Notes under the pieces: model-generated
The model's database searches: none
What the model saw: only the letters and a program-made list of their open reading frames with translations
What the model was told of the DNA's origin: nothing
From: Clostridia bacterium
GTDB lineage: Bacteria; Bacillota; Clostridia; Oscillospirales; CAG-272
Assembly (NCBI GenBank): GCA_017411785.1
Contig: JAFQPL010000010.1
Coordinates: 1 to 42,482, forward strand
Length of the DNA stretch: 42,482 bases
Direction of reading: 5' to 3'
Shown: one piece after another, positions 6,100-41,831 of the stretch
Numbering within the stretch: the stretch's first letter is position 1
Layout of the letters: every line of letters begins with the position of its first letter
Translations under genes and position numbers: made by a program

Positions 6100-6158
6100 C
6101 TTAACTGTTGTTTTTGTAAAATATTTTGTTAAAATATCGTAAAATTTTCAAAAACCTA

Positions 6159-6187
6159 TTGCAAAAAAACGTTTTTTATATTATTAT
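6159..6187 (+). promoter_or_regulatory. sigma-A-type promoter of ftsZ copy 1 (TTGCAA-17-TATTAT)
   Basis: TTGCAA lies at 6159-6164 and TATTAT at 6182-6187. The block CTATTGCAAAAAA...TATATTATTAT recurs upstream of ftsZ copy 2. Confidence 0.55.
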
Positions 6188-6238
6188 AATATATAGTATT
6201 ATTATCTTACACGTATATTTTTCAGGAGGAAGTTTGAA

Positions 6239-7279
6239 ATGGGTTTTGAGTATTACGATAACTGCGAAAGCGGAGTTTGCATAAAGGTCGTCGGTGTAGG
6301 CGGAGGCGGAAACAACGCGGTAAACCGTATGGTCAGCGACGGCGTAAAGGGCGTAGAATTTATTGCGGTAAACACGGACCGTCAAGCTCTTAAAAGCTCA
6401 CTTGCCGGCCGTAAGGTCGTTATAGGCGAGAAGATAACCAAGGGCTTTGGCGCGGGCGCTAAGCCTGAAATCGGAGCGCTCTCGGCAGAGGAGTCTATAG
6501 ACGAGATAAAGGCAGCTCTCAGCGGTGCGGATATGGTATTTGTAACTGCGGGAATGGGAGGCGGAACCGGAACGGGCGCGGCTCCTGTTGTAGCAAAGGT
6601 TGCGCATGATATGGATATACTTACCGTGGGTATAGTAACCAAGCCCTTTGAGTTTGAAGGTAAGAGAAGAATGGCTCAGGCGGAGCAGGGTATCGAGGAG
6701 TTTGCAAAGTACGTTGATTCCTTGGTCGTTATTCCCAACGAGCGTCTTAAATATATTTCCGAAAACAGAATAACCCTCTTTAATGCTTTCTCCGAGGCAG
6801 ACGGAATTCTCCGCAAGGGTGTTCAGTCTATATCCGAGCTTATTAATGTGTCTGCGTTTATTAATCTTGACTTTGCAGACGTTACCTCGGTAATGAATAA
6901 TTCAGGACTTGCGCATATGGGTATCGGAAGCGGTACAGGTAAGGACAAAGCAGAGATGGCTGCCAAGGCGGCAATCTCGAGTCCGTTGCTTGAGACCTCT
7001 ATAAACGGAGCTATGGGTGTTATAATCAGCATTTCCGCATCTCCCGATATTGGACTTGAGGACGTTGATATAGCAGCGGGAATGGTAAGAGCGGAGTGTA
7101 ACGAGGACGCGAATATAATCTTCGGTGTCGGTTTTGATGAAAATCTCTCCGATGAGATGAGAATAACAGTAGTTGCGACCGGCTTTACAAAGGACGGAGA
7201 CAAGGATTCGGCTAAGTCTGCGAAGGATGACGCTAAAAAGGCTGCAAGCCCCGAGGATTTTCTTGACGGATTGTTTTAA
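6239..7279 (+). CDS. ftsZ: cell division GTPase FtsZ (paralog 1)
   Basis: Motifs present: [13 protein letters not shown], the tubulin signature GGGTGTG, the T7 loop NLDFADV, and the C-terminal peptide PEDFLDGLF. The RBS is AGGAGGAAG. Confidence 0.93.
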
Positions 7280-7296: not shown

Positions 7297-7338
7297 ATAG
7301 CGGTTTCTGCGTGCAGACCGCTATATTTATTTTTTTTG
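7297..7338 (+). terminator. intrinsic terminator after ftsZ copy 1
   Basis: The hairpin ATAGCGGT..CTG/CAGACCGCTAT is followed by ATTTATTTTTTTTG. Confidence 0.7.
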
Positions 7339-7368
7339 TAAAAAAGGGGAGAATTTTTAGTAAAACTA

Positions 7369-7397
7369 TTGCAAAAAATCAAAAAATATATTATTAT
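7369..7397 (+). promoter_or_regulatory. sigma-A-type promoter of ftsZ copy 2 (TTGCAA-17-TATTAT)
   Basis: TTGCAA lies at 7369-7374 and TATTAT at 7392-7397. The block is near-identical to the one at 6156-6187. Confidence 0.55.
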
Positions 7398-7436
7398 ATA
7401 AGTAATAGAAAAATTACGGTAAAGGAGCTTCAAAAA

Positions 7437-8450
7437 ATGAGTTACGAAAATGAATATGGCGTAAAAATAAAGGTCGTAGGAGTCGGCGGCGGCGGAAATA
7501 ATGCGGTCAACCGTATGATAGCTTCCGATGTAAAGGGCGTTGAGTTTATCGCAATAAATACCGATAAGCAGGCTCTTAAAAAGTCTCTTGCAACTACTCA
7601 GCTGGCAATTGGAGAAAAGATTACTAACGGATTTGGCGCAGGCTCAAATCCCGAGATAGGAAAGAGAGCTGCCGATGAGGCTTACGCTGAGATAAAGAAG
7701 CTTCTTACAGGCGCCGATATGGTGTTTATAACCGCGGGAATGGGCGGCGGAACAGGAACGGGTGCTACTCCCTTTGTTGCAAAGGCTGCAAAGGAGCTTG
7801 ATATACTTACGGTTGCGGTTGTGACCACTCCTTTTGCATTTGAGGGTAAAAAGAGAATGCTTCAGGCAGAGGTAGGTATAGCAGAGCTTGGTGAGTACGT
7901 TGATTCCTTGGTAGTTATTCCTAATGAGAGACTCAAGCTTGTTGCAGATTCAAGAATTTCTCTTGCAACGGCATTCTCAGAGGCAGACGACGTTCTTCGC
8001 AGAGGTGTTCAGTCTATATCCGATCTTATCAATAACCTTGGATTTATCAATATCGACTTTGCTGACGTAACCTCGATCCTTGAGCATTCAGGCGTTGCTT
8101 ATATGGGAATGGGTAAGGCAAGCGGTAAGGATAAGGCGCAGATCGCTTCCAATATGGCGATCTCCAGTCCTCTCATAGAGACCTCTATCAAGGGCGCAAA
8201 GGGCGTTATTATCAGTATCGCCGCATCCGCAGAGGTAGGACTTGAGGACGTTGATTTTGCCGCAAACGCAATAAGAAACGAGTGCAACGAGGATGCAAAT
8301 ATTATCTTCGGCGTTGCATTTGATCCTTCACTTGAGGATGAGATGAGAATTACTATTATCGCGGCAGGCTTTAACTCTAACGACGATAAGAAAGAAGAAA
8401 AGAAGGAAGCCGCTCCCGCAAGTGACGATTTCTTCGCAGGTCTGTTTTAA
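7437..8450 (+). CDS. ftsZ: cell division GTPase FtsZ (paralog 2)
   Basis: The start [27 protein letters not shown] follows the RBS AAAGGAG. It has GGGTGTG, NIDFADV and the C-terminal peptide SDDFFAGLF. The track ORF start at 7311 runs through the promoter and terminator and is rejected. Confidence 0.92.
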
Positions 8451-8498: not shown

Positions 8499-8581
8499 TA
8501 AGGTATTTACAAAATTTGCGCAGAATGATATAATATTTATGCTGTGTAATGCTTTCAGAAATCTGTCTGACGGAGGATAAA

Positions 8582-9694
8582 ATGAAGAGATTTTTAGCAC
8601 TTATTTTGTCGCTTTTATTTGTTCTTGGCGCGCTTCTTGCCTGCGGAAAGAAGAAATCTGCCGATACTGATGCTTATAAACAAAACGCGGAAGGCGAAAA
8701 TACACTCGATGATGAGCTTACTGAGCTTGGGGAAAATGTTGTATATGACAATAAGGATGATGAGCCTCAACCTCACGTTCCCAAGGCGGAAAGCACGGCG
8801 GGGCTCGCCTTTGAACCGACTGCTGACGGAAGGGAATATGTGCTTACGGGTAAGGGAACCTGCTCGGCTGTTAATATAGTTATAGACGGATATAATGATT
8901 TGCCCGTAACGGCTATTGCGCCGTCTGCCTTTACGGATTTCACCTCGTTGATAGGCGTATCGTTGGGCGGAGGTATAAAAAGCATAGGTCCCGATGCATT
9001 TTCGGGATGTACGAGTCTTGCTAATATAATTTTTCCCGCAAGTCTTACGAATATAGGTGAGGGAGCATTCCGCGGTTGTAGCGCGCTTGCTAATGTAACC
9101 TTCAGCGAAGGTATTGAGCGAATAGGCGCTTGGGCTTTTTCAAATTGTACCTCTCTTACGAGAATATCCTTGCCTGAGGGCTTAAAGGATATTGGCGGTT
9201 CGGCGTTTTATTCCTGCGAGAAGCTTATGAGCATAACGCTTCCCGATACGGTAACGAAAATAGGTAATTCGGCCTTTTATAATACCGAGTATTACAATGA
9301 CGCAAAGAACTGGTCAAAGGAGGTTCTCCTCATAGGAGATTGCTTGATAGATGTTAAGAAAAGCGTAGAGGGACAGTATTATGTGCTTCCGCAGGCGAGA
9401 GTCATTGCAGACGGAGCGTTTTATGCCTGCAAGGGTATTACAACGCTATCTCTGCCGATGGATCTTACCCACATAGGCGATTACGCCTTTTATTCCTGCT
9501 CCGCATTGGAGAGCGTGGAAATTTACGACACGGTGATATCGATTGGCGCGTCAGCCTTTGCCGATTGCTCGGCTATTAAAGAGGTAAATATTGTCAAGAC
9601 CGGAGAATGGGTTGGTGATGAAAACGCCGAAAATAAAGGAAATCTTCCGATGTCGAACGATGAAATTTTAAAAGCCATAAAGCCGCAGGCTTAA
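8582..9694 (+). CDS. BspA-type leucine-rich-repeat surface lipoprotein
   Basis: The signal peptide MKRFLALILSLLFVLGALLACGKK has the lipobox LLAC. It is followed by repeated ~23-aa units (I.I..SV..IG..AF..C.SL). ATG 8582 follows GGAGGA. Confidence 0.8.
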   Translation: MKRFLALILSLLFVLGALLACGKKKSADTDAYKQNAEGENTLDDELTELGENVVYDNKDDEPQPHVPKAESTAGLAFEPTADGREYVLTGKGTCSAVNIVIDGYNDLPVTAIAPSAFTDFTSLIGVSLGGGIKSIGPDAFSGCTSLANIIFPASLTNIGEGAFRGCSALANVTFSEGIERIGAWAFSNCTSLTRISLPEGLKDIGGSAFYSCEKLMSITLPDTVTKIGNSAFYNTEYYNDAKNWSKEVLLIGDCLIDVKKSVEGQYYVLPQARVIADGAFYACKGITTLSLPMDLTHIGDYAFYSCSALESVEIYDTVISIGASAFADCSAIKEVNIVKTGEWVGDENAENKGNLPMSNDEILKAIKPQA

Positions 9695-9712
9695 ATTTAA
9701 TAAACGGTGTAT

Positions 9713-9760
9713 AAAAAGCAGGCTGTCTCAAACGTGAGTTGAGACAGCCTGCTTTTTATA
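9713..9760. terminator. bidirectional intrinsic terminator between convergent genes
   Basis: AAAAAGCAGGCTGTCTCAA-loop-TTGAGACAGCCTGCTTTTT has an A-run on the 5' side and a T-run on the 3' side. Confidence 0.85.
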
Positions 9761-9824: not shown

Positions 9825-11168
9825 TTAAAGCTTAATTACGTCAATTTCCTCTATTCCGTAATAAAGAAGAAGCTCTGCCGCCTCTGCGGTAATCAGCTCT
9901 CCGCTTACTATCGGTGGAATCGCAGGCGGGCAGGACACGCTCGGAGCGGCGCATATGCGCCCCACGGCTTTTTTTACGTTGATCCTTTCGCTTTGCGAAA
10001 AGATCGCTTCCCGCAGTGAAAGCGCTTGCTTGCAGGGAAGAATTCGCGGAGGACAGGCAACACTTGCGTTTCGCGCAGGGATGCTTGCAAAGGTTGATTT
10101 TATCCTTTCAAAATCGACATCCGCGGTTTCTGTGGATATCATAAGAACGAGCGCGTCAAGGTCTGCGTACTCGGGCTCCACGCTATGCTCTCTCAAGCGG
10201 GACGCAAGCTCGATGCCCGAATAGGAGCAGGAGTCTCTCGTTATTACGATTTTAAGGCTCTCATCTCCCGCAGAATCAAAGCCCAAAGCCGCAAGCTCGT
10301 TTTTTAGCGCATCTACCTTTTTTTCGACGGCGGCAAGCTTTTCGCTAAAGCCGTTAGCGAGATACGCGTTAGTCAGGTCAAGCGATTGAAGCGTGAGATA
10401 CGACGGACTTGTTGAGGCAAAGAGGGAAAGCATATTTCTGGTGTCATCCTTGTCAAAGGGGGTAAAGCTCTTTGAAATATGCAGATACGCGCCGCCCGTG
10501 AGCGTGGGAAGCGTTTTGTGCGCCGAATCGCAACACATATCTGCCCCGAGAGCGATTGGATGCCGTGAGGGTCGCTCAAAGGCCAAATACGCGCCGTGTG
10601 CGTTATCTACGAGCAGATATATGCCGAACTCCTTGCAGACCTCGGAAAGCCCCTTTATATCAAGAATTTCGCCGAGATATGTCGGAGAGGTGACGTAAAG
10701 GGCGCAGGGAAGCTCGCTCATTGAGGAGAGCTTGCGTTTAAGCTCGGAGGGATTAAGACTGCAATCGCAAAGATGCAGAGGCTTGTCGGGATATATCCAG
10801 TCTACCTCAAAATCAAGCAGCGCGCAGGCGTAAATAAACGCCTTGTGTATATTGCGCGCGGCAAGGATTTTTGACTTCTTTTTTGAATTGCGCTTGACCA
10901 GAGCAAGCATAGCCTTTATTGCGAGAGTTGAGCCCTCGGTAGAGTAAAAGGTGTGCGCAGTGCCGAATAGCTTTGCCGCGTTCCTCTCACTTTCATCAAT
11001 TATTCCGTTTGCCGAGTACAGCACATCGGCTCCGTTTATTTCGGTTATATCAAATGCTTCGCAGCCTAAAAGCGAATTGCCCTTGTGTGCGGGCATATGT
11101 AAACGGGATATATTATCGGCTGCATAGTGCTTTACAAAGTCGGCGATAGGTGTTGTTATTTTACTCAT
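9825..11168 (-). CDS. PLP-dependent Orn/Lys/Arg decarboxylase-family protein
   Basis: The N-terminus (LHMPAHKGN...DITE..G.D.L......I.ESE..AA.LFG...TF..T.GST) and a later SAHKTLP lysine motif are typical of the major domain of this decarboxylase family. The start ATG overlaps the maturase stop in ATGAGTAA, an 8-nt overlap. Confidence 0.75.
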   Translation of the reverse strand: MSKITTPIADFVKHYAADNISRLHMPAHKGNSLLGCEAFDITEINGADVLYSANGIIDESERNAAKLFGTAHTFYSTEGSTLAIKAMLALVKRNSKKKSKILAARNIHKAFIYACALLDFEVDWIYPDKPLHLCDCSLNPSELKRKLSSMSELPCALYVTSPTYLGEILDIKGLSEVCKEFGIYLLVDNAHGAYLAFERPSRHPIALGADMCCDSAHKTLPTLTGGAYLHISKSFTPFDKDDTRNMLSLFASTSPSYLTLQSLDLTNAYLANGFSEKLAAVEKKVDALKNELAALGFDSAGDESLKIVITRDSCSYSGIELASRLREHSVEPEYADLDALVLMISTETADVDFERIKSTFASIPARNASVACPPRILPCKQALSLREAIFSQSERINVKKAVGRICAAPSVSCPPAIPPIVSGELITAEAAELLLYYGIEEIDVIKL

Positions 11169-12549
11169 CTGCTTCTGCTACCTGCAGCATAACGGCACAT
11201 TCAATGCGCTTTTTGAAAAGCTCGCATCCGTACTCATAGACACCGTTTATACTGCCTGTTGCGTGATATGCATTCGCGGCGCATCCGCCCGAGCAGTAAA
11301 GCCTTGCCCAGCAGTCTGCGCATTCGGGACGCGCGTAAGCGTTACACGAACGGAATTCATCCTGAATTGCGGTGTTTGTAATGCCGTCATAGATATTTCC
11401 AAGACTGTATTTTGGGTCTCCCACAAACTGATGACAGGGGAAAAGCTCACCCCAAGGAGTTACAGCCATATATTCGGTACCCGAACCGCAGCCCGTTATT
11501 CGCTTGTAGATACAGGGACCGTTCTTGAGGTCAAGCATATAGTGATAGAAGGTAAAGGGGCGGCCTTCCTTTTTGCGCTTGATCATTTCCTTTGCAAGAA
11601 TTTCGTATTGCTCGAATATTTTTGGCATATCTTCTTTTGTAAGAGCGCAAGGGTCGGTTGGCGCGCAAACTACGGGCTCCATACTCAGCTCGGTAAATCC
11701 GAGGTCTGCCATATGCAATATGTCGTTGGTAAAATCGACGTTGTTGTGAGTAAAGGTTCCGCGAACGTAATAATCCTTTCCGCCGCGGGCTTCAACGAGC
11801 CGTCTGAATTTGGGAACTATCCTTTCGTAGCTTCCGTTACCTGCGTAATCCTTGCGGAAAAGGTCATGAACCTCACGTCTGCCGTCAAGGCTGAGTACGA
11901 CGTTGCTCATTTCCTTGTTGAGAAAATCTATAACCTCGTCATCTATAAGCAGACCGTTGGTCGTAAGGGTAAATCTGAAATTTTTATTGTGTTCCTTTTC
12001 TATACTGCGCGCATAGGCAACAAGCTGCTTTACCACGTCCCAGTTCATAAGAGGCTCGCCGCCGAAGAAGTCCACCTCAAGATTTCTGCGAGTTCCCGAA
12101 TTTTCAATAAGAAAATCAAAGGCGCGTTTTCCTACCTCAAAGCTCATGACCGCGCGGTCGCCTTGATATTTTCCTTGGCTTGCAAAGCAATAGGAGCAGT
12201 TAAGATTGCAGGTGTGCGCTACGTGTAAGCAAAGCGCCTTTATTACCTTGCTGTTGTTTTTATAATTGCAGGCAAGCGCTTCGTATTCATCCTTTGAATA
12301 AAGCTTTCCCGCATCCTCAAGTGAGCGTACGTCGTCTATACAAGCGAGGATCTCATCCTTGGTAACGCTTGCATCGTCGGCGTATTTTTCAAGCATAGCC
12401 GAAACTATCTGCTCGGGGGAGCTTGTTTTGTACATTTCGATTATATCGTAAGCGACCTCGTCAACTGCGTGGACAGAGCCGCTTGCAGTGTCGAGAACTA
12501 TATTGTAGCCGTTAAGCTTGTACTGATGTACCATATTTATATACCTCAA
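11161..12549 (-). CDS. scfB: radical SAM/SPASM thioether-forming maturase for the SCIFF peptide
   Basis: It has the CNLNCSYC radical SAM cluster motif, a C-terminal Cys-rich SPASM region (CGSG...C...C..C....C.GGC), and sits immediately downstream of a SCIFF precursor. Confidence 0.88.
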   Translation of the reverse strand: MRYINMVHQYKLNGYNIVLDTASGSVHAVDEVAYDIIEMYKTSSPEQIVSAMLEKYADDASVTKDEILACIDDVRSLEDAGKLYSKDEYEALACNYKNNSKVIKALCLHVAHTCNLNCSYCFASQGKYQGDRAVMSFEVGKRAFDFLIENSGTRRNLEVDFFGGEPLMNWDVVKQLVAYARSIEKEHNKNFRFTLTTNGLLIDDEVIDFLNKEMSNVVLSLDGRREVHDLFRKDYAGNGSYERIVPKFRRLVEARGGKDYYVRGTFTHNNVDFTNDILHMADLGFTELSMEPVVCAPTDPCALTKEDMPKIFEQYEILAKEMIKRKKEGRPFTFYHYMLDLKNGPCIYKRITGCGSGTEYMAVTPWGELFPCHQFVGDPKYSLGNIYDGITNTAIQDEFRSCNAYARPECADCWARLYCSGGCAANAYHATGSINGVYEYGCELFKKRIECAVMLQVAEADE

Positions 12550-14404: not shown

Positions 14405-14448
14405 TAAATAAAAAATGAAAGGTTGCTGCCGTGTTCGGCAGCAACCTT
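14405..14448 (-). terminator. intrinsic terminator downstream of the ferredoxin gene
   Basis: A perfect 13-bp stem AAGGTTGCTGCCG-TGTT-CGGCAGCAACCTT (14419-14448) is followed on the minus strand by TCATTTTTTATTT. Confidence 0.85.
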
Positions 14449-14470
14449 GTCAAAATGCGTTGTCCGTAAA

Positions 14471-14641
14471 TCAGTCGGCAGTGGGAGCCTCAACAGGACA
14501 AGCCTCTGCGCAAGCGCCGCACTCGATGCACTCGTCTGCGTTTATCTCGTACTTGCCGTCGCCCTCGGTAATAGCGCTTACGGGGCAAGCATCTGCACAA
14601 GCGCCGCAAGCGATGCAAGCGTCTGTAATCTTGTATGCCAT
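14471..14641 (-). CDS. fdx: clostridial-type 2x[4Fe-4S] ferredoxin, 56 aa
   Basis: Manual reverse-complement translation gives MAYKITDACIACGACADACPVSAITEGDGKYEINADECIECGACAEACPVEAPTAD*. It contains two CxxCxxCxxxCP motifs, and a GGAGGT RBS lies upstream. The ORF is too short for the ORF track. The track ORFs at 14415-14762, 14423-14647 and 14490-14747 are shadows of it. Confidence 0.93.
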   Translation of the reverse strand: MAYKITDACIACGACADACPVSAITEGDGKYEINADECIECGACAEACPVEAPTAD

Positions 14642-14675
14642 AATTAATTACCTCCATAAATTTTACTGTACATAC

Positions 14676-14703
14676 ATTGTAGCACATAATTTCAGAATTG
14701 CAA
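14676..14703 (-). promoter_or_regulatory. sigma-A-type promoter for the ferredoxin gene (TTGCAA-16-TACAAT with TGn)
   Basis: On the minus strand, TTGCAA lies at 14703-14698 and TACAAT at 14681-14676, preceded by TGC. Confidence 0.5.
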
Positions 14704-14891
14704 GAGAAAAAGCAAAAAAAATATATAAAATTTTTAAAAAAATACATTTTTTATCTTTTTGAGGTGCTTTTTTTAAAAACAAAATAAAAGCTTCAAATTT
14801 TATAAAAAATTTTTGTTGCACCCTAATACGACAATTTTTACGTAAAGTATATGTTAAAATTTAACGGCGGAAACAAAAAGGAGGATAAAAA

Positions 14892-20234: not shown

Positions 20235-20278
20235 AAAAGGGCTGTATTTGACTTCTTGCTTAAATCTGCCTATACCAT

Positions 20279-20317
20279 AAAAAACAGACACAGTAAAGCT
20301 TTACTGTGTCTGTTTTT
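20279..20317. terminator. bidirectional intrinsic terminator
   Basis: AAAAACAGACACAGTAA-AGC-TTTACTGTGTCTGTTTTT lies between convergent genes. Confidence 0.85.
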
Positions 20318-20319
20318 TA

Positions 20320-20901
20320 TTATTCCGCAAAGGTTATAGATTTTATAACAACGTTTTGCAAGGGCTTGTCCGCAGAGTTTGTTTCAACCGAAGCAATGGC
20401 GTCAACTACGTCCATACCGTCCTTTACCATTCCAAATGCCGCGTATTTTCCATTAAGATGAGCAGCCTTTTGATGGCAGATAAAGAACTGCGAGGATGCT
20501 GAATTCTTGTCATTTGAGCGAGCCATTGAGATAACTCCGCGGTCGTGCTTTAAGGAATTTCTGACTCCGTTTTCCGAGAATTCGCCCTTTATGTTTATTT
20601 CGTTTCCGTTTGCGTCGGTATTTCCGCCTGTGCCGTCACCGTTGGGGCAACCGCCCTGGATCATAAAACCTTCGATAACGCGGTGGAAGATAAGACCGTC
20701 GTAGAAGCCGTCGTTTACGAGGCTTTTAAAATTTTTTACGGTTATCGGAGCGATGTCGGGATAAAGCTCAACGGTTATTTTACCGTAATTTTCGACGTCG
20801 ATAACGACGGTGTTTGGCTTTGAATCGATTTCGTCCTTGCATGAGAAAAGGCAAGGCATAATAAAAGCAGTTACTAACAAAAGACAAATAATTTTTTTCA
20901 C
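20320..20901 (-). CDS. cyclophilin-type peptidyl-prolyl cis-trans isomerase, lipoprotein
   Basis: The signal peptide has the lipobox LFSC. Cyclophilin motifs are present: FHRVI.GFMIQGG, SMAR....NSASSQFFI. Confidence 0.88.
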   Translation of the reverse strand: MKKIICLLLVTAFIMPCLFSCKDEIDSKPNTVVIDVENYGKITVELYPDIAPITVKNFKSLVNDGFYDGLIFHRVIEGFMIQGGCPNGDGTGGNTDANGNEINIKGEFSENGVRNSLKHDRGVISMARSNDKNSASSQFFICHQKAAHLNGKYAAFGMVKDGMDVVDAIASVETNSADKPLQNVVIKSITFAE

Positions 20902-20972: not shown

Positions 20973-22070
20973 TTATTTGTTAAAAGTATTTATCCATTCA
21001 TTGCGCGCAAGCTCATATGTAAAAATTTGCGCGGCACGAGTTGGGTCGGAAAGCTCATCTGCATAAATGGATTTACCGTTTATCTGCCAGCCGTAAGGGT
21101 TTTCAAGCCTCAGCTTCTTTAGTGAATCGCAACCGACAAAGGTCTCCTCCCAAATGAATTTAACCGTATCGGGAATAGAGATGCTTTCGAGTGCGGAGCA
21201 ATACTTAAAGGCTTGCAGACCTATAGATGATAGATGCTTTGGCAGGGTAATATCTGTAAGCTTATCGCAGGAGAAAAAGGCTCGCCCGCCTATTACCTCG
21301 AGGCTTTGCGGCAAGTCTAAGCTTGAAATTGCCGAGCATTCGTAAAAGGCTTCGTTTCCGATAATACGCAGAGAGCCTTGATCTGAAAAGCTTACGGCAG
21401 AAAGTGAGGCGCATCCTCGGAAAGCGCCGCGTTCAATGCTTTTTAGCAGGCATCTGTCCGCAAATATAAGACTTTTAAGATGCTTGCAGGAGCTAAAGCT
21501 CCATTCTCCGAGATAAACTACGCTTGTGGGGATTTCAACCGAATTGAGAGAGGCGCCCGAAAAGGCGTAATCACCAATCGATCTAAGCGCTTGCGGAAGA
21601 TCGGCTTGTAGGATGCCACAGTCTGAAAAGGCGTATCTGCCGATAGAGATAAGACCTTTGGGTAATTCTATGTGCTCGAGGCTTTTGCATCCTATAAAAG
21701 TGTAATTGCTTATTTTGCTTAATTTGCGCGGAAGCGTTACCGATGAAAGAGCGGTACAAAAGCCGAATGCCCGTTTGCCTATTGAATTAACGGTATCGGG
21801 GATTGAAATTGATTTTAGGCTTGAGCAACGGTAAAACGCCTTTTCACCTATCTCAAGAAGATCTTCAGGAAGCTTTACCGAGATTATTTTATCGTGCTTG
21901 CAAAATGCAAAAGGCGCGATTTTTTTTACAGGAAATCCTTCATAGGAGTCTGCGATTACAATGTTGGATAAATCCTCATCACAACCCGTGATAGTGGCTA
22001 TACCGTTTTCTATAGTGTAGAAAATTCCCGCCGAGGAGCCCGAGCGTTGTATAGAATTGATTTCTTTCAT
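20973..22070 (-). CDS. BspA-type leucine-rich-repeat protein with no recognisable signal peptide
   Basis: It contains about 12 tandem ~23-aa LRR_5-like units (L..I.IP..V..IG..AF..C..L). The RBS is AAGGAGGAG. Confidence 0.8.
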   Translation of the reverse strand: MKEINSIQRSGSSAGIFYTIENGIATITGCDEDLSNIVIADSYEGFPVKKIAPFAFCKHDKIISVKLPEDLLEIGEKAFYRCSSLKSISIPDTVNSIGKRAFGFCTALSSVTLPRKLSKISNYTFIGCKSLEHIELPKGLISIGRYAFSDCGILQADLPQALRSIGDYAFSGASLNSVEIPTSVVYLGEWSFSSCKHLKSLIFADRCLLKSIERGAFRGCASLSAVSFSDQGSLRIIGNEAFYECSAISSLDLPQSLEVIGGRAFFSCDKLTDITLPKHLSSIGLQAFKYCSALESISIPDTVKFIWEETFVGCDSLKKLRLENPYGWQINGKSIYADELSDPTRAAQIFTYELARNEWINTFNK

Positions 22071-22091: not shown

Positions 22092-22120
22092 ATTATAGCA
22101 TAAAACCCTTTGTTTTTCAA
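22092..22120 (-). promoter_or_regulatory. near-consensus sigma-A promoter reading into the LRR gene (TTGAAA-17-TATAAT with TGn)
   Basis: On the minus strand, TTGAAA lies at 22120-22115 and TATAAT at 22097-22092, preceded by TGC. It directly abuts the repeat array. Confidence 0.65.
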
Positions 22121-22300
22121 GTGAAATATTCGGCGTTGCCGAATGTGAAATAATTCACTTTGTGAATTGTGAAATATTGCTACCTTTGGTCGCAATGTGA
22201 AATGAAATTCGCCACTTCACATTTGCGAAGCAAATATTTCACAGCGGAGCTATTTCACTTGGCGGAGCCATATTTCACTTGCCGAAGGCGAATTTCGTTG
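22121..22300. repeat. GTGAAAT/ATTTCAC motif plus mini-hairpin array (copy 1 of a two-copy element)
   Basis: GTGAAAT occurs at 22121, 22145, 22169 and 22197. The complement ATTTCAC occurs at 22236, 22252 and 22272. Spacers are short self-complementary segments (CGGCGTTGCCG, ATTTGCGAAGCAAAT, TGGCGGAGCCA, GCCGAAGGC). The array is homologous to 30545-30757 in inverted orientation. Confidence 0.85.
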
Positions 22301-22342
22301 AAAAAAGCACACATTTGTCTGCTGACAAATGTGTGCTTTTTT
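22301..22342 (-). terminator. intrinsic terminator flush with the tRNA-Gln 3' end (part of the repeated element)
   Basis: The sequence is AAAAAAGCACACATTTGTC-TGCT-GACAAATGTGTGCTTTTTT. It is almost identical to the hairpin at 30500-30544. Confidence 0.85.
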
Positions 22343-22343
22343 C

Positions 22344-22417
22344 TGGCTGGGGTGGAAAGAATCGAACTTTCCCGGCGAGAGTCAAAGTCTCGTGTCCTAC
22401 CACTAGACTACACCCCA
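22344..22417 (-). tRNA. tRNA-Gln (anticodon UUG)
   Basis: The reverse complement TGGGGTGTAGTCTAGTGGTAGGACACGAGACTTTGACTCTCGCCGGGAAAGTTCGATTCTTTCCACCCCAGCCA folds as a cloverleaf. The acceptor stem is TGGGGTG/CACCCCA, the anticodon stem CGAGA/TCTCG, the anticodon loop CTTTGAC and the T-arm GAAAG-TTCGATT-CTTTC. CCA is encoded. Confidence 0.9.
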
Positions 22418-28829: not shown

Positions 28830-28851
28830 TGCTAAAAAAAGAAAAAAGGTA

Positions 28852-28880
28852 TTGACAAAGAGCGGTATTTGTGATATAAT
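28852..28880 (+). promoter_or_regulatory. consensus sigma-A promoter for rpsF-ssb-rpsR (TTGACA-17-TATAAT with TGn)
   Basis: TTGACA lies at 28852-28857 and TGA-TATAAT ends at 28880. Confidence 0.75.
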
Positions 28881-30256: not shown

Positions 30257-30265
30257 CAAAAAGTA

Positions 30266-30294
30266 TTGACAAAAAAATATTAGTATGATATAAT
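30266..30294 (+). promoter_or_regulatory. consensus sigma-A promoter for the tRNA-Thr/tRNA-Tyr operon (TTGACA-17-TATAAT with TGn)
   Basis: TTGACA lies at 30266-30271 and TGA-TATAAT ends at 30294, about 14 nt upstream of the tRNA-Thr 5' end. Confidence 0.75.
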
Positions 30295-30308: not shown

Positions 30309-30383
30309 GCTGGTGTGGCTCAATGGCAGAGCAGCTGATTTGTAATCAGCAGGTTGTTGGTTCGACTCCGATCACCAGCTCCA
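30309..30383 (+). tRNA. tRNA-Thr (anticodon UGU)
   Basis: GCTGGTGTGGCTCAATGGCAGAGCAGCTGATTTGTAATCAGCAGGTTGTTGGTTCGACTCCGATCACCAGCTCCA folds as a cloverleaf. The acceptor stem is GCTGGTG/CACCAGC, the anticodon stem GCTGA/TCAGC, the anticodon loop TTTGTAA and the T-loop TTCGACT. CCA is encoded. Confidence 0.9.
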
Positions 30384-30414: not shown

Positions 30415-30499
30415 GGGGGATTTCCCGAGCGGCCAAAGGGGGCAGACTGTAAATCTGTTGTCACTGACTTCGGTGGTCCGAATCCACCATCCCCCACCA
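30415..30499 (+). tRNA. tRNA-Tyr (anticodon GUA), class II with a long variable arm
   Basis: The sequence is GGGGGATTTCCCGAGCGGCCAAAGGGGGCAGACTGTAAATCTGTTGTCACTGACTTCGGTGGTCCGAATCCACCATCCCCCACCA. The acceptor stem is GGGGGAT/ATCCCCC, the anticodon loop CTGTAAA, the variable stem GTC/GAC and the T-arm GGTGG-TCCGAAT-CCACC. The T-loop has C at position 55. Confidence 0.85.
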
Positions 30500-30544
30500 G
30501 AAAAAAGCACACATTTGTCTACTAAGACAATGTGTGCTTTTTTC
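30500..30544 (+). terminator. intrinsic terminator flush with the tRNA-Tyr 3' end (part of the repeated element)
   Basis: The sequence is GAAAAAAGCACACATTTGTC-TACTAA-GACAATGTGTGCTTTTTT. It is near-identical to 22301-22342 on the opposite strand. Confidence 0.85.
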
Positions 30545-30757
30545 AACGAAATTTGCCCTGCGGGCAAGTGAAATAGCTGTGCTGTGAAATATTTGCTTCG
30601 CAAATGTGAAATATTCGCTGACGCGAATGTGGGCAAATTTCATTTCACATCGAACAGAGCCGTAGGCGACGTGAGATATTTCACAATGCGCAATAGCACA
30701 TTATTTCACGTTTTGCGCAAGCAAAACATTTCACTGCAACCGCAGGCGATGCATCAT
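30545..30757. repeat. GTGAAAT/ATTTCAC motif plus mini-hairpin array (copy 2)
   Basis: GTGAAAT occurs at 30568, 30584 and 30606. ATTTCAC occurs at 30642, 30678, 30703 and 30728. Spacers form short hairpins (TTGCCCTGCGGGCAA, ATTTGCTTCGCAAAT, ATTCGCTGACGCGAAT, TTTTGCGCAAGCAAAA). Confidence 0.85.
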
Positions 30758-30786
30758 TTGACAAACAAGCGATTTCGTGATATAAT
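30758..30786 (+). promoter_or_regulatory. consensus sigma-A promoter reading into the small lipoprotein gene (TTGACA-17-TATAAT with TGn)
   Basis: TTGACA lies at 30758-30763 and TGA-TATAAT ends at 30786. It directly abuts the repeat array. Confidence 0.7.
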
Positions 30787-30810
30787 AACGGAAAATGAGG
30801 AGCTGCGATT

Positions 30811-31266
30811 ATGAAAAAAATGTTATTTATTTTGTTTGCAACTGTCCTGTTGTTAAGTATGACAGCTTGTAACGGTTATAATGGAATTATGCGAGAACAT
30901 CTTAGCGATGAAGATAATTATCAAGATATCGAGGCAACATTTTGCTCATATAAAGAAGCCGACGGCCGAATTTATCTGTATGTTTCCGTTGAGGACAAAT
31001 CAGCTTTTGATTCTTCCGAAGCGAACAGTGAAGAAATCAGATTGGAATTAGTGGGTGATAATTGCAATGTTCTTAGCGAAGTCCTTGCAAAAGAAGAGAT
31101 ATGCGAGGGCGATAGAATTACTGTAAAATGCTCGACGTGGATCTATATGGATTCAACGTTTTACTATGTCGCCGAAATAAAAAATCAAGATAAAATATTT
31201 TTATCGTTTGATGATGGCTTAAAAAACATCATAAAGTATGTTAACGATAATAAAGCTTTACTTTGA
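30811..31266 (+). CDS. small lipoprotein of unknown function (151 aa)
   Basis: The signal peptide MKKMLFILFATVLLLSMTAC carries a lipobox. The RBS is GAGGAG. I recognised no conserved catalytic motif. Confidence 0.65.
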   Translation: MKKMLFILFATVLLLSMTACNGYNGIMREHLSDEDNYQDIEATFCSYKEADGRIYLYVSVEDKSAFDSSEANSEEIRLELVGDNCNVLSEVLAKEEICEGDRITVKCSTWIYMDSTFYYVAEIKNQDKIFLSFDDGLKNIIKYVNDNKALL

Positions 31267-41610: not shown

Positions 41611-41802
41611 AACCCCTATCTTCAAAGAACTTTACTCTTGGTGTTGTATCAAAACGATATTTCGGTCTACGTTTTGTATGTATGAAATTAAAGTCCAAGC
41701 AATTGCTTTTTCTTTGCGTCGAATTCTTCTTGATGTAAATAGGTGCCAAAAATTTTTTATATTTGATTTTGATAAAATAATATCTTTTTTTATCAAATTT
41801 TA

Positions 41803-41831
41803 TTGACAAAGCAGGGCGTTTGTGTTATAAT
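41803..41831 (+). promoter_or_regulatory. consensus sigma-A promoter for gdhA (TTGACA-17-TATAAT with TGn)
   Basis: TTGACA lies at 41803-41808 and TGT-TATAAT ends at 41831. Confidence 0.7.

Follow-up and report, generated by a model that had tools for sequence, protein, structure and literature searches.

We found that a 250-nt non-coding stretch (positions 22,092 to 22,343; copy 1) in 42,482 nt of DNA from a Clostridia bacterium (the window, that is, the whole stretch that was analysed) genuinely belongs to Gut-1 (RF01706), an orphan Rfam family. It consists of two Gut-1-like half-elements placed face to face. Together with a terminator hairpin flush with a tRNA gene and an outward promoter, these half-elements form a module of ~250 bp that is conserved in many gut Clostridia. 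Comparison with relatives showed the module to be the non-coding companion of stand-alone four-helix-bundle (4HB) genes of the PF05635/TIGR02436 family. By the same comparison, copy 1 is a derived solo copy that has lost its 4HB gene and whose promoter now drives the gene of an LRR surface protein. Taken as a whole, our preferred reading is that copy 1 is the solo array of an S23p cassette, with heptamers that would be bound in trans and would tune downstream expression. We give this reading a probability of about 0.5.

Two copies of the module in the window

Copy 1 starts one base past the encoded CCA of tRNA-Gln(TTG) (22344-22417, minus strand; called by ARAGORN, Rfam tRNA 62.3 bits). Its first part, T1, is a 19-bp hairpin with the loop AGCA and the shape of a bidirectional intrinsic terminator (22301-22342, minus strand). 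The stem is flanked by A6 and T6, and reads A6-GCACACATTTGTC / GACAAATGTGTGC-T6. That is, a GC-rich hairpin followed by a U-run lies directly 3' of the upstream gene, and the description of the first module as a terminator flush with the tRNA was accurate.

T1 is followed by the short arm (22231-22300, minus strand), which matches the Rfam Gut-1 model with 55.2 bits (gathering score 50). The short arm contains, in order, CAACGAAAT, an X-box hairpin and three units of GTGAAAT plus hairpin. The X-box, GAAATTCGCC (22287-22296, minus strand), is complementary to the 3' arm of the first hairpin and also to the centre of the element at 22204-22213. Motif orientation flips at this centre, which is made up of a degenerate heptamer (GTGAAGT) and an X' box, GGCGAATTTC (22204-22220, minus strand). 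The long arm (22119-22208, plus strand) is a second Gut-1-like unit on the opposite strand (52.3 bits) and contains four GTGAAAT heptamers with hairpins of 17-21 nt. Read on the plus strand, GTGAAAT begins at 22121, 22145, 22169 and 22197, and ATTTCAC at 22236, 22252 and 22272. The array is thus mirrored, four heptamers and then three, with small hairpins between the motifs, as the sequence-only reading had described it. A sigma-70-type promoter with a TG extension, TTGAAA-17-TATAAT, completes the element (22092-22120, minus strand; score 11/12). Its -35 box abuts the last heptamer, and the ATG of the LRR gene is at 22070. This BspA-type LRR_5 gene (20973-22070, minus strand; Pfam PF13306, 9e-88) is the present cargo of the promoter. 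The terminator, the heptamers, the strong outward promoter abutting the array and a further sub-site (below) were all found where the sequence-only reading had placed them.

Copy 2 lies at about 30500-30790 (plus strand), behind tRNA-Tyr (30415-30499, plus strand), which is itself preceded by tRNA-Thr (30309-30383). It is 79% identical to copy 1, and the differences are indels of whole units. Its T1 hairpin (30501-30543, plus strand) has the same stem sequence as that of copy 1, indicating that T1 belongs to the repeated unit. The short arm of copy 2 (30544-30617, plus strand) matches Gut-1 with 63.5 bits. The long arm, on the opposite strand (30637-30736, minus strand), is Gut-1-like with 44.9 bits, short of the gathering score of 50. 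This score is thus reached by three of the four halves, namely both in copy 1 and the first in copy 2, and the claim that the architecture fits none of the standard classes has to be withdrawn. The outward promoter of copy 2, TTGACA-17-TATAAT (30758-30786, plus strand; score 12/12), drives a lipoprotein-like ORF of 151 aa (30811-31266). Both copies point outward from an 8-kb block of housekeeping genes.

The motif GTGAAATA occurs 12 times in the window (1.4 expected), a number reached in 0 of 100 shuffles, and 11 of the 12 occurrences are inside the two copies. The window contains no cas, integrase, transposase or reverse transcriptase gene, and no PF05635 ORF was found in its 42 kb. Synteny with the tRNA-Thr/Tyr locus (rpsF-ssb-rpsR) was absent from all relative loci retrieved.

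Layout and base pairing in the Gut-1 family

Gut-1 was described in 2010 as a motif of GUGAAAU linkers between three short hairpins, and the supplement says only that it is found in human gut sequences (PMC2864571). We found no literature on Gut-1 beyond that paper. Searching related genomes gave at least 94 unique relatives (about 100) from gut Clostridia, with RF01706 scores of 54-88 bits, and 94 unique elements were parsed. The element is thus a modular, repeated non-coding one, as proposed: it has a second copy in the window, and many homologues were found elsewhere. Three hairpins, conserved GUGAAAU linkers and compensatory changes in the stems were all found.

The elements share one layout. 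A hairpin or terminator that immediately adjoins the CCA end of a tRNA or tmRNA gene is followed by a first array of about five GTGAAAT heptamers with short perfect hairpins between them, a centre complementary to the 5' end, and a second array of about five ATTTCAC heptamers with longer hairpins between them. A sigma-70 promoter often abuts the last heptamer. Typically, three or four forward and four reverse heptamers were counted per element, always convergent and never divergent (94 elements). The Rfam model covers one half of this layout. The elements described here have more: a second half mirrored on the opposite strand, a closing stem that co-varies, a hairpin at the front that is flush with a tRNA or tmRNA and, often, a promoter and a 4HB gene; the published account attaches neither function nor context.

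Of 81 testable elements, 32 have a tRNA gene (14 isotypes) called immediately upstream in the same orientation, and none has one on the opposite strand. Many other elements keep just a 3' fragment of a tRNA or tmRNA; such partial 3' ends persist where mobile elements have integrated. A tmRNA is upstream at the P0116 loci. After the array, a near-consensus promoter was present in 17 of 91 elements. A tRNA in front and a promoter behind are thus a tendency but not a rule.

The hairpins between the heptamers are real. Pairing reached 90% in their stems (52% in shuffles), and the covariation score was 0.95 (0.21 in shuffles); none of 500 shuffles scored as high. X and X' were perfectly complementary over at least 10 nt in 81 of 94 relatives, in at least six co-varying classes of X, and the stem that they form encloses the short arm.

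It is possible, though we consider it unlikely, that the element functions as a structured RNA, as it is filed in Rfam. It would be transcribed by read-through from the promoter of the tRNA or tmRNA, or as a 5' leader, and act as an sRNA or RNP partner; alternatively, the two complementary arrays would form a long stem that is cut by RNase III, as happens in 23S rRNA intervening sequences, so that the tRNA transcript is insulated from the downstream mRNA. Gut-1 was rated a certain RNA by Weinberg et al. on covariation grounds (PMC2864571). The folded strand is far more stable than shuffles (z = -10.7), its MFE structure pairs GUGAAAU with AUUUCAC, and in all lineages seen the left array is the reverse complement of the right one. 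Three loci (L098, L211 and L274) lack a promoter in the interval from the array to the start codon of the 4HB gene, so these arrays must be transcribed, and at some loci a forward terminator lies just past the long arm. In addition, RNase III excises the IVS stems of terminal inverted repeats, heptamers included (PMC4990558). In contrast, T1 looks efficient, and no promoter in front of or inside the array, or for a reverse transcript, was found in 91 elements. Helices of 7 bp that are broken by four-way junctions would also be poor substrates for RNase III.

The pattern of substitutions also bears on this alternative. T1 stems on the tRNA strand had 876 Watson-Crick pairs, eight G.U and one A.C (62 relatives). 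The array stems differed from T1 in having no excess of G.U (27 G.U, 23 A.C). Neither arm was biased, so an assignment of the strand from G.U and A.C counts did not give a direction. The loop sequences were mirrored between the arms: of 304 loops read on the ATTTCAC strand, 183 were G..A and five T..C; this bias is not easily explained by one transcript. A ladder in which each GUGAAAU pairs with an AUUUCAC, as predicted by RNAfold, was rejected: of about 50 variants in single heptamers, only 2-4 had a matching change in the opposite arm, and the ladder is incompatible with the X/X' stem, which does co-vary. Because single-motif variants are so rarely compensated, the heptamers appear to act as a recognised sequence and not as paired partners.

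Association with four-helix-bundle genes

The main functional lead is a link that the sequence-only reading missed. At least 20 of 87 parsed elements (at least 23%) are followed by a PF05635 gene at a distance of 15-77 nt (mode near 52 nt), and further unparsed elements with a downstream 4HB gene exist. This family (PF05635/TIGR02436) comprises Avd-like proteins and S23p, the 23S rRNA intervening-sequence protein. Look-ups that started from the protein found inverted heptamer arrays at 7 of 7 4HB genes: 3 of 3 in the Clostridial clade, and 4 of 4 in the 2RLD clade, where inverted (AATTGAC)n arrays flank the ORF. The motif shifts with the clade of the protein (GTGAAAT, GTGATAT, GTGAAGT, GAAGTAA, GAGAAAAG and GGTTATAT), a covariation that could be partly due to shared host phylogeny. 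PADLOC gave no match for the 4HB protein.

One relative locus (L073) is syntenic with the window (PPIase 75% and DHH 69% identity). It shares the last hairpin with the window and has a homologous promoter, which drives a truncated 4HB remnant of 27 codons in the place that the LRR gene occupies in the window. We classed both window copies as solo derivatives and not as complete cassettes because there is no PF05635 ORF in the window.

The nearest known systems are the 23S rRNA intervening sequences (IVSs) with an S23p ORF in Coxiella and Leptospira (PMC4990558). The protein family, PF05635, is the same, and in both cases a heptamer and inverted repeats are next to the ORF. Both reside in or next to a stable-RNA gene, and both are regarded as selfish, with no function assigned. 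In Coxiella, the S23p ORF is preceded by tandem heptamers, and the S23p protein forms a homopentameric toroid (PMC4990558); PDB entries 2RLD and 2GSC have five chains each. Inverted arrays of a lineage-specific heptamer were likewise found here, next to tRNA-Gln and tRNA-Tyr in the window, next to tRNA and tmRNA genes in relatives, and inside operons in Bacteroides. However, an IVS is located within helix 45, with the ORF enclosed by its inverted repeats, whereas the Gut-1 elements have both arrays upstream of the ORF, heptamers spaced by hairpins and a tRNA or tmRNA 3' flank, and in the window the ORF is gone.

A second comparison is with diversity-generating retroelements (DGRs), whose targets require a hairpin in the DNA that has a GRNA loop and a variable stem (PMC3240598). 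Avd-like 4HB proteins occur in both (PMC3240598, PMC10053308), and Avd resembles PF05635 (PMC10053308). As at Gut-1, the stem of the DGR hairpin or cruciform is free in sequence but must pair, and its loop has G...A at the ends. Unlike DGR targets, Gut-1 elements have many hairpins instead of one, loops that are mostly 3 nt, and no template repeat or variable repeat nearby; no reverse transcriptase gene was found in the window or behind the 4HB genes.

A selfish interspersed repeat, MITE- or REP/BIME-like, is an improbable alternative. It would be an internally deleted mobile 4HB cassette with no host function beyond the terminator and promoter that it carries. There are several copies per genome, near-identical within a genome and diverged between genomes (the window; L044, L089 and L245), and many copies are at contig ends. 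The promoter and RBS are conserved and the cargo genes behind them differ, the core of the short arm has a short direct repeat (X') on its flanks, and some copies away from tRNA genes retain the ...CCA(G) junction. IVS elements have also long been suspected to be mobile (PMC4990558). However, there was no transposase, integrase or reverse transcriptase in the window or beside relatives, and a clear target-site duplication or empty site was not found. With regard to a MITE, the arms are inverted at the level of the heptamers only, and no target-site duplication was seen at the boundaries of within-genome copies. Solo copies have kept their heptamers and perfect hairpins intact, an argument for ongoing selection, and an araD-4HB-araA insertion in Bacteroides is common to proteins that are only 73% identical, indicating vertical descent. 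In enterobacteria, the REP palindromes of a genome share a single conserved sequence with a GTAG head and are accompanied by a RAYT transposase. Gut-1 elements are likewise multi-copy extragenic palindromic units of alternating orientation at the 3' ends of transcription units, but the hairpin sequences vary within one element and the 7-nt linker alone is conserved; REP/BIME was rejected.

A reading as arm-type binding sites, or att remnants, of a tyrosine integrase targeting the 3' ends of tRNA genes is largely excluded. Short motifs are repeated in both orientations beside tRNA 3' ends, and elements occur at prophage borders in IMG/VR contigs. At these borders, however, the array is on the host side of the partial tRNA (attR). 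There is no adjacent integrase, both window copies face away from the housekeeping block, and arm sites would leave the covariation of the hairpins unexplained. A phage origin was also rejected: about half of 25 matches to viral contigs were chance matches, and the rest are in host DNA next to partial tRNAs at prophage ends. An operator of the CRP/FNR or Rex type (TGTGA-N6-TCACA) is the least probable; the sub-site TGTGAAATAATTCACT exists at 22144-22159 as TGTGA-N6-TCACT, but it arises solely where a hairpin stem reads AATTCAC beside a heptamer, and most relatives have other stems. Its likeness to a CRP/FNR site is incidental and is not conserved in the family. A CRISPR array was rejected, with a repeat of 7 nt, self-complementary spacers and no cas gene.

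Proposed mechanism and implications

We propose that copy 1 acts as a solo S23p-cassette array. The array is probably a lattice of putative binding sites for a pentameric 4HB protein. The roughly 5+5 heptamers would be the functional units, recognised in trans by an oligomeric 4HB protein (pentameric in solved relatives) that would be made at another locus; supply in trans is assumed, as the window has no 4HB gene. The variable hairpins would be spacers whose sole requirement is folding. By folding, they would juxtapose neighbouring heptamers in single-stranded nucleic acid, and the folded array could thereby mimic the contiguous tandem heptamers beside 4HB genes of other phyla. The complex would be placed downstream of a highly active stable-RNA gene and ahead of the next promoter, where it would most likely set the level of expression from that promoter or of tRNA read-through.

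The array might act as RNA or as DNA. The difficulty with RNA is that the array has no promoter of its own and a strong terminator in front of it, and with double-stranded DNA, the perfect hairpins have no obvious reason. The Omega (RHH) repressor of pSM19035, a small oligomeric protein, binds heptad arrays cooperatively. Its heptads, contiguous in double-stranded DNA and with no hairpin spacers, are likewise 7-bp units in direct and inverted orientation just upstream of promoters; the fold of the protein differs from a 4HB. A binding-site array and a promoter-delivery module had both been suggested for copy 1, and both are close to what the comparative data suggest.

More broadly, and tentatively, at somewhat less than even odds, Gut-1 arrays, the heptamers of 23S IVSs and the (AATTGAC)n arrays of Bacteroides may be one recognition lattice of pentameric S23p/Avd-like proteins. 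Array and protein together would then be a very widespread, so far undescribed class of selfish cassette that colonises stable-RNA genes and operons, and surface-protein genes would have recruited solo arrays, including both window copies, as modules of terminator plus promoter. Since its description in 2010, Gut-1 has remained an orphan without an attached organism, context or function, and the many thousands of stand-alone PF05635 proteins (at least 8000 matches) likewise have no assigned function. The link between them gives both a testable hypothesis, a heptamer array with a pentameric four-helix bundle. It also touches two old puzzles: why some bacteria have intervening sequences in their 23S rRNA, and by what the DNA hairpin of DGR targets is recognised. 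In genome annotation, it accounts for a 250-bp block that recurs behind tRNA genes of gut Clostridia, breaks assemblies and supplies the promoter for BspA-type LRR and lipoprotein genes.

Gut-1 elements in the window

We found that the repeat element behind tRNA-Gln adds a new member to a family that is known but uncharacterised. When the window was scanned against Rfam, three matches exceeded the curated threshold of RF01706 (Gut-1 RNA): 22231-22300 (- strand, 55.2 bits), 22119-22208 (+ strand, 52.3 bits) and 30544-30617 (+ strand, 63.5 bits). A fourth, at 30637-30736 (- strand), scored 44.9 bits, below the threshold. The sequence-only reading had considered the element unclassifiable; these matches show otherwise, and the Gut-1 consensus (three short hairpins joined by GUGAAAU linkers) is the very array it described. 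Gut-1 was graded a certain RNA by Weinberg et al. 2010 and reported from human-gut metagenome sequences only, in no sequenced organism (PMC2864571); our literature search turned up nothing later on it. Every element is built from two Gut-1 units on opposite strands that face each other, an arrangement absent from the Rfam description.

Copy 1 (22092-22343) follows tRNA-Gln(TTG) (22344-22417, - strand). A 19-bp hairpin with A6/T6 flanks (T1; 22342-22301) starts one base past the tRNA CCA. GTGAAAT occurs at 22121, 22145, 22169 and 22197 (+ strand) and its complement at 22236, 22252 and 22272. The promoter, TTGAAA-17-TATAAT (22120 to 22092, - strand), matches consensus at 11/12 positions with a TG extension, and the ATG of a BspA-type LRR_5 gene lies ~20 nt past it. 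Terminator hairpin, motif positions, promoter and the small hairpins between motifs are thus all as first read from the sequence. Copy 2 (~30500-30790, + strand) comes after tRNA-Thr and tRNA-Tyr and terminates in a 12/12 promoter followed by a 151-aa lipoprotein-like ORF. Its T1 stem is identical to that of copy 1; the two are 79% identical overall and differ by whole motif-plus-hairpin units. Within the 42-kb window, GTGAAATA has 12 occurrences (1.4 expected; 0/100 shuffles reach 12), and 11 of the 12 are confined to two places.

The window is otherwise ordinary chromosome (dcw cluster, pgk, tpi, rpsF-ssb-rpsR), and no PF05635 ORF was found within it. A second BspA-type LRR_5 gene (8549-9694) has no Gut-1 array ahead of it. 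Near-identical consensus promoters (AAAAGTATTGACAAA ... TGTGATATAAT) at 28844-28880, 30258-30294, 30758-30786 and 41795-41831 precede rpsF, the tRNA-Thr/Tyr pair, the copy-2 cargo gene and one further site. Perfect palindromes with 22-nt arms and A/T-run flanks, at 9710-9760 and 20277-20320 (the latter without loop spacing), resemble bidirectional terminators. In the dcw cluster, tandem FtsZ paralogues (6239-7279, 7311-8450) follow ftsQ, with duplicated coding blocks (6281-6580 / 7467-7766, 71% identity) and duplicated upstream regions (6124-6188 / 7334-7398). A 46-nt repeat (14493-14538 / 14580-14625, 83% identity) lies within the ORF at 14415-14762, a few kb from a radical SAM/PqqD gene (11161-12549); this could be a RiPP-like locus.

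Anatomy and context across relatives

The search for homologues proposed in the sequence-only reading covered genome, viral and metagenome contigs, each in a single scan, and yielded at least 265 loci; our parser recovered 94 unique full elements among the loci listed. Their named sources are all gut Clostridia (Oscillospiraceae, Acutalibacteraceae, Christensenellaceae and unclassified Clostridia MAGs). With the upstream tRNA setting the direction of reading, the parts come in a constant order: T1; CA plus (C/G)(A/T)(C/G)GAAAT; a hairpin bearing the X box; 2-3 further units of GTGAAAT plus hairpin (9-13 nt); a degenerate GTGRR; the X' box plus ATTTC; and four ATTTCAC with three 17-18-nt hairpins between them. 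There are ~5 heptamers in each arm (the 5' short arm and the mirrored long arm), degenerate sites included, and the arms are always convergent and never divergent.

The array hairpins are real. Across 72 long-arm units, 90% of stem cells are paired, compared to 52% in shuffles, and 201 cells carry two-sided changes, compared to 61. The covariation score is 0.95 (0.21 in shuffles; 0/500 as high; slid controls at most 0.17). In addition, the 5' GAAAT-X and the central X'-ATTTC show perfect complementarity of 10 nt or more in 81/94 elements, with at least six co-varying classes of X, so this pairing can close the short arm, competing with that arm's first hairpin. In a second motif family (GTGATAT/ATATCAC), both arms switch together. 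T1 sequences are common to copies of one genome (the window and three other loci, L044, L089 and L245), not across genomes.

Two Clostridia MAG loci (L011:3272-3969, L002:4622-4740) have hairpin-spaced arrays with other linkers (ATGATGCA..., TGATGATATACA...) beside single ATTTCAC arms, so hairpin-spaced short-motif arrays seem to be a wider class. A viral contig (L140:1377-1560) has six GTGATAT followed by five ATATCAC with 5-9-nt spacers and no hairpins, probably an unrelated, iteron-like mirrored array of a phage.

The expectation that copies follow tRNA genes and precede promoters held in part. A same-strand tRNA gene was called directly upstream of 32 of 81 testable elements (15/26 on genome contigs), covering 14 isotypes and never on the opposite strand. 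A tmRNA precedes further elements, and partial tRNA/tmRNA 3' ends precede others at prophage or island integration sites. Such integration also accounts for the viral-contig matches, the array being on the host side. Near-consensus forward promoters cluster 20-40 nt past the last heptamer in 17/91 elements (24/92 by a second criterion), with the -35 box most commonly starting directly after it. In eight loci of one common gut lineage (L126, L128, L131, L134, L179, L200, L207, L218), the array is followed directly by a C-terminal fragment of an IS256-type transposase, and what remains upstream, beside a prophage, is a tRNA-Asn 3' end of only ~10 nt.

Association with four-helix-bundle genes

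Downstream sequence sufficed for 87 elements. In at least 20 of these, the first gene past the array encodes a protein of 113-128 aa in PF05635 (23S_rRNA_IVP) / TIGR02436 (four helix bundle protein; 4HB); many more such cases escaped the parser. The gene starts 15-77 nt (most commonly ~52 nt) past the last heptamer. Genes beyond it are unrelated housekeeping genes, and we found no reverse transcriptase or recombinase among these neighbours. Conversely, 3/3 4HB proteins found by homology alone are preceded by T1 and a Gut-1 pair, with a serine-recombinase gene, tRNA-Arg and tmRNA, respectively, upstream.

The repeated motif follows the clade of the 4HB protein. It is GTGAAAT with the MAESKL... 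clade, GTGATAT with two ...SILR.KSK.F... clades, GTGAAGT in L186 and tandem GAGAAAT in L028. Mirrored arrays are TTACTTC/GAAGTAA in L258, CTTTTCTC/GAGAAAAG in L116 and L260, and, with hairpins, ATATAACC/GGTTATAT in an Akkermansia MAG (L007:5750-6700). In both L116 and L260, the 3' arm of the preceding terminator recurs at the centre, between the two arrays. At four loci of the Bacteroides clade of PDB 2RLD (within L290-L304; e.g. L290:1434-1933), the 4HB ORF is inserted within operons (araD-araA, aminotransferase-DAHP synthase, hsdS-hsdR) and flanked by (AATTGAC)n upstream and (GTCAATT)n downstream, inverted tandem heptamers without hairpins. The hsdS-hsdR case comes from a MAG with the label Anaerolineae; its motif is identical to that in Bacteroides. 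2RLD matches the Clostridial 4HB protein (E = 1.5e-21), and both 2RLD and 2GSC have five chains.

The ingredients are like those of the Coxiella 23S rRNA intervening sequence, where a variable number of tandem heptamers (GACAGAT) precedes the ORF of S23p, a homopentameric toroid of the same family, and terminal inverted repeats form a stem cut by RNase III (PMC4990558).

Both window copies are solo derivatives that lack the 4HB gene. Locus L073 shares synteny with the window (PPIase 75%, DHH protein 69% identity) and has the same last hairpin (ATTCGGCAACGCCGAAT) and a homologous promoter, followed by MADSKLRNLSTDFAVKVIKMCDKTKGQ-stop, a 27-codon remnant of a 4HB gene, and then a different gene. 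In the window, the homologous promoter is fused to the LRR gene; L089, the closest relative of copy 1, likewise drives an LRR_5 gene. That such elements are selfish, MITE-like remnants with no host function seems improbable.

A putative binding-site array

Whole-element folding pairs GUGAAAU with AUUUCAC (z = -10.7). A single deviant heptamer is matched by its mirror partner in only 2-4 of ~50 cases, in any register. Stems co-vary and heptamers do not, the hallmark of sequence recognised by a factor acting in trans. The heptamers are kept as sequence, number ~5 per arm, differ from clade to clade of a pentameric protein and lie beside its gene in four phyla; on these grounds they are putative binding sites of that protein. 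We give a probability of about 0.5 to the reading in which the pentameric 4HB protein would bind the heptamers, the hairpins would be spacers that have to fold, which juxtaposes neighbouring heptamers, and the assembled complex would govern either the promoter next to it or read-through out of the stable-RNA gene. In the window, the protein would be supplied in trans. The identity part of this explanation is much firmer than the mechanism part. The earlier suggestion, an array of binding sites or a module that delivers promoters, was a fair guess.

It is possible, at perhaps half the weight, that the element acts as RNA alone or is processed like the intervening-sequence stem. On RNA versus DNA, the observations pull in both directions. 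Hairpins of 4-7 bp are meaningful only where the nucleic acid is single-stranded. Transcription is favoured by three 4HB-linked loci (L098, L211, L274) with no promoter between array and start codon, and by forward terminators directly behind the long arm at several loci. Against a single RNA, a check of both strands in 91 elements revealed no sigma-70-like promoter ahead of the array or within it. The arm stems also show no excess of G.U over A.C (short arm: 535 Watson-Crick, 5 G.U, 5 A.C; long arm: 1166, 22 and 18), unlike T1 (8 G.U vs 1 A.C on the tRNA strand). Finally, the loops, mostly 3 nt and closed by C-G, have a strongly one-sided bias that is nevertheless mirrored between arms: on the ATTTCAC strand, G..A loops account for 81/117 in the short arm and 102/187 in the long arm, and the reverse type (T..C) for 1 and 4. 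C(GNA)G is a class of very stable DNA mini-hairpin. Integrase arm sites are very improbable, and a CRP/Rex operator slightly more so, the earlier claim of a CRP site being incorrect.

As far as we could find, a link between Gut-1 and the S23p/Avd-like family has not been described before. This link makes both orphans experimentally tractable.
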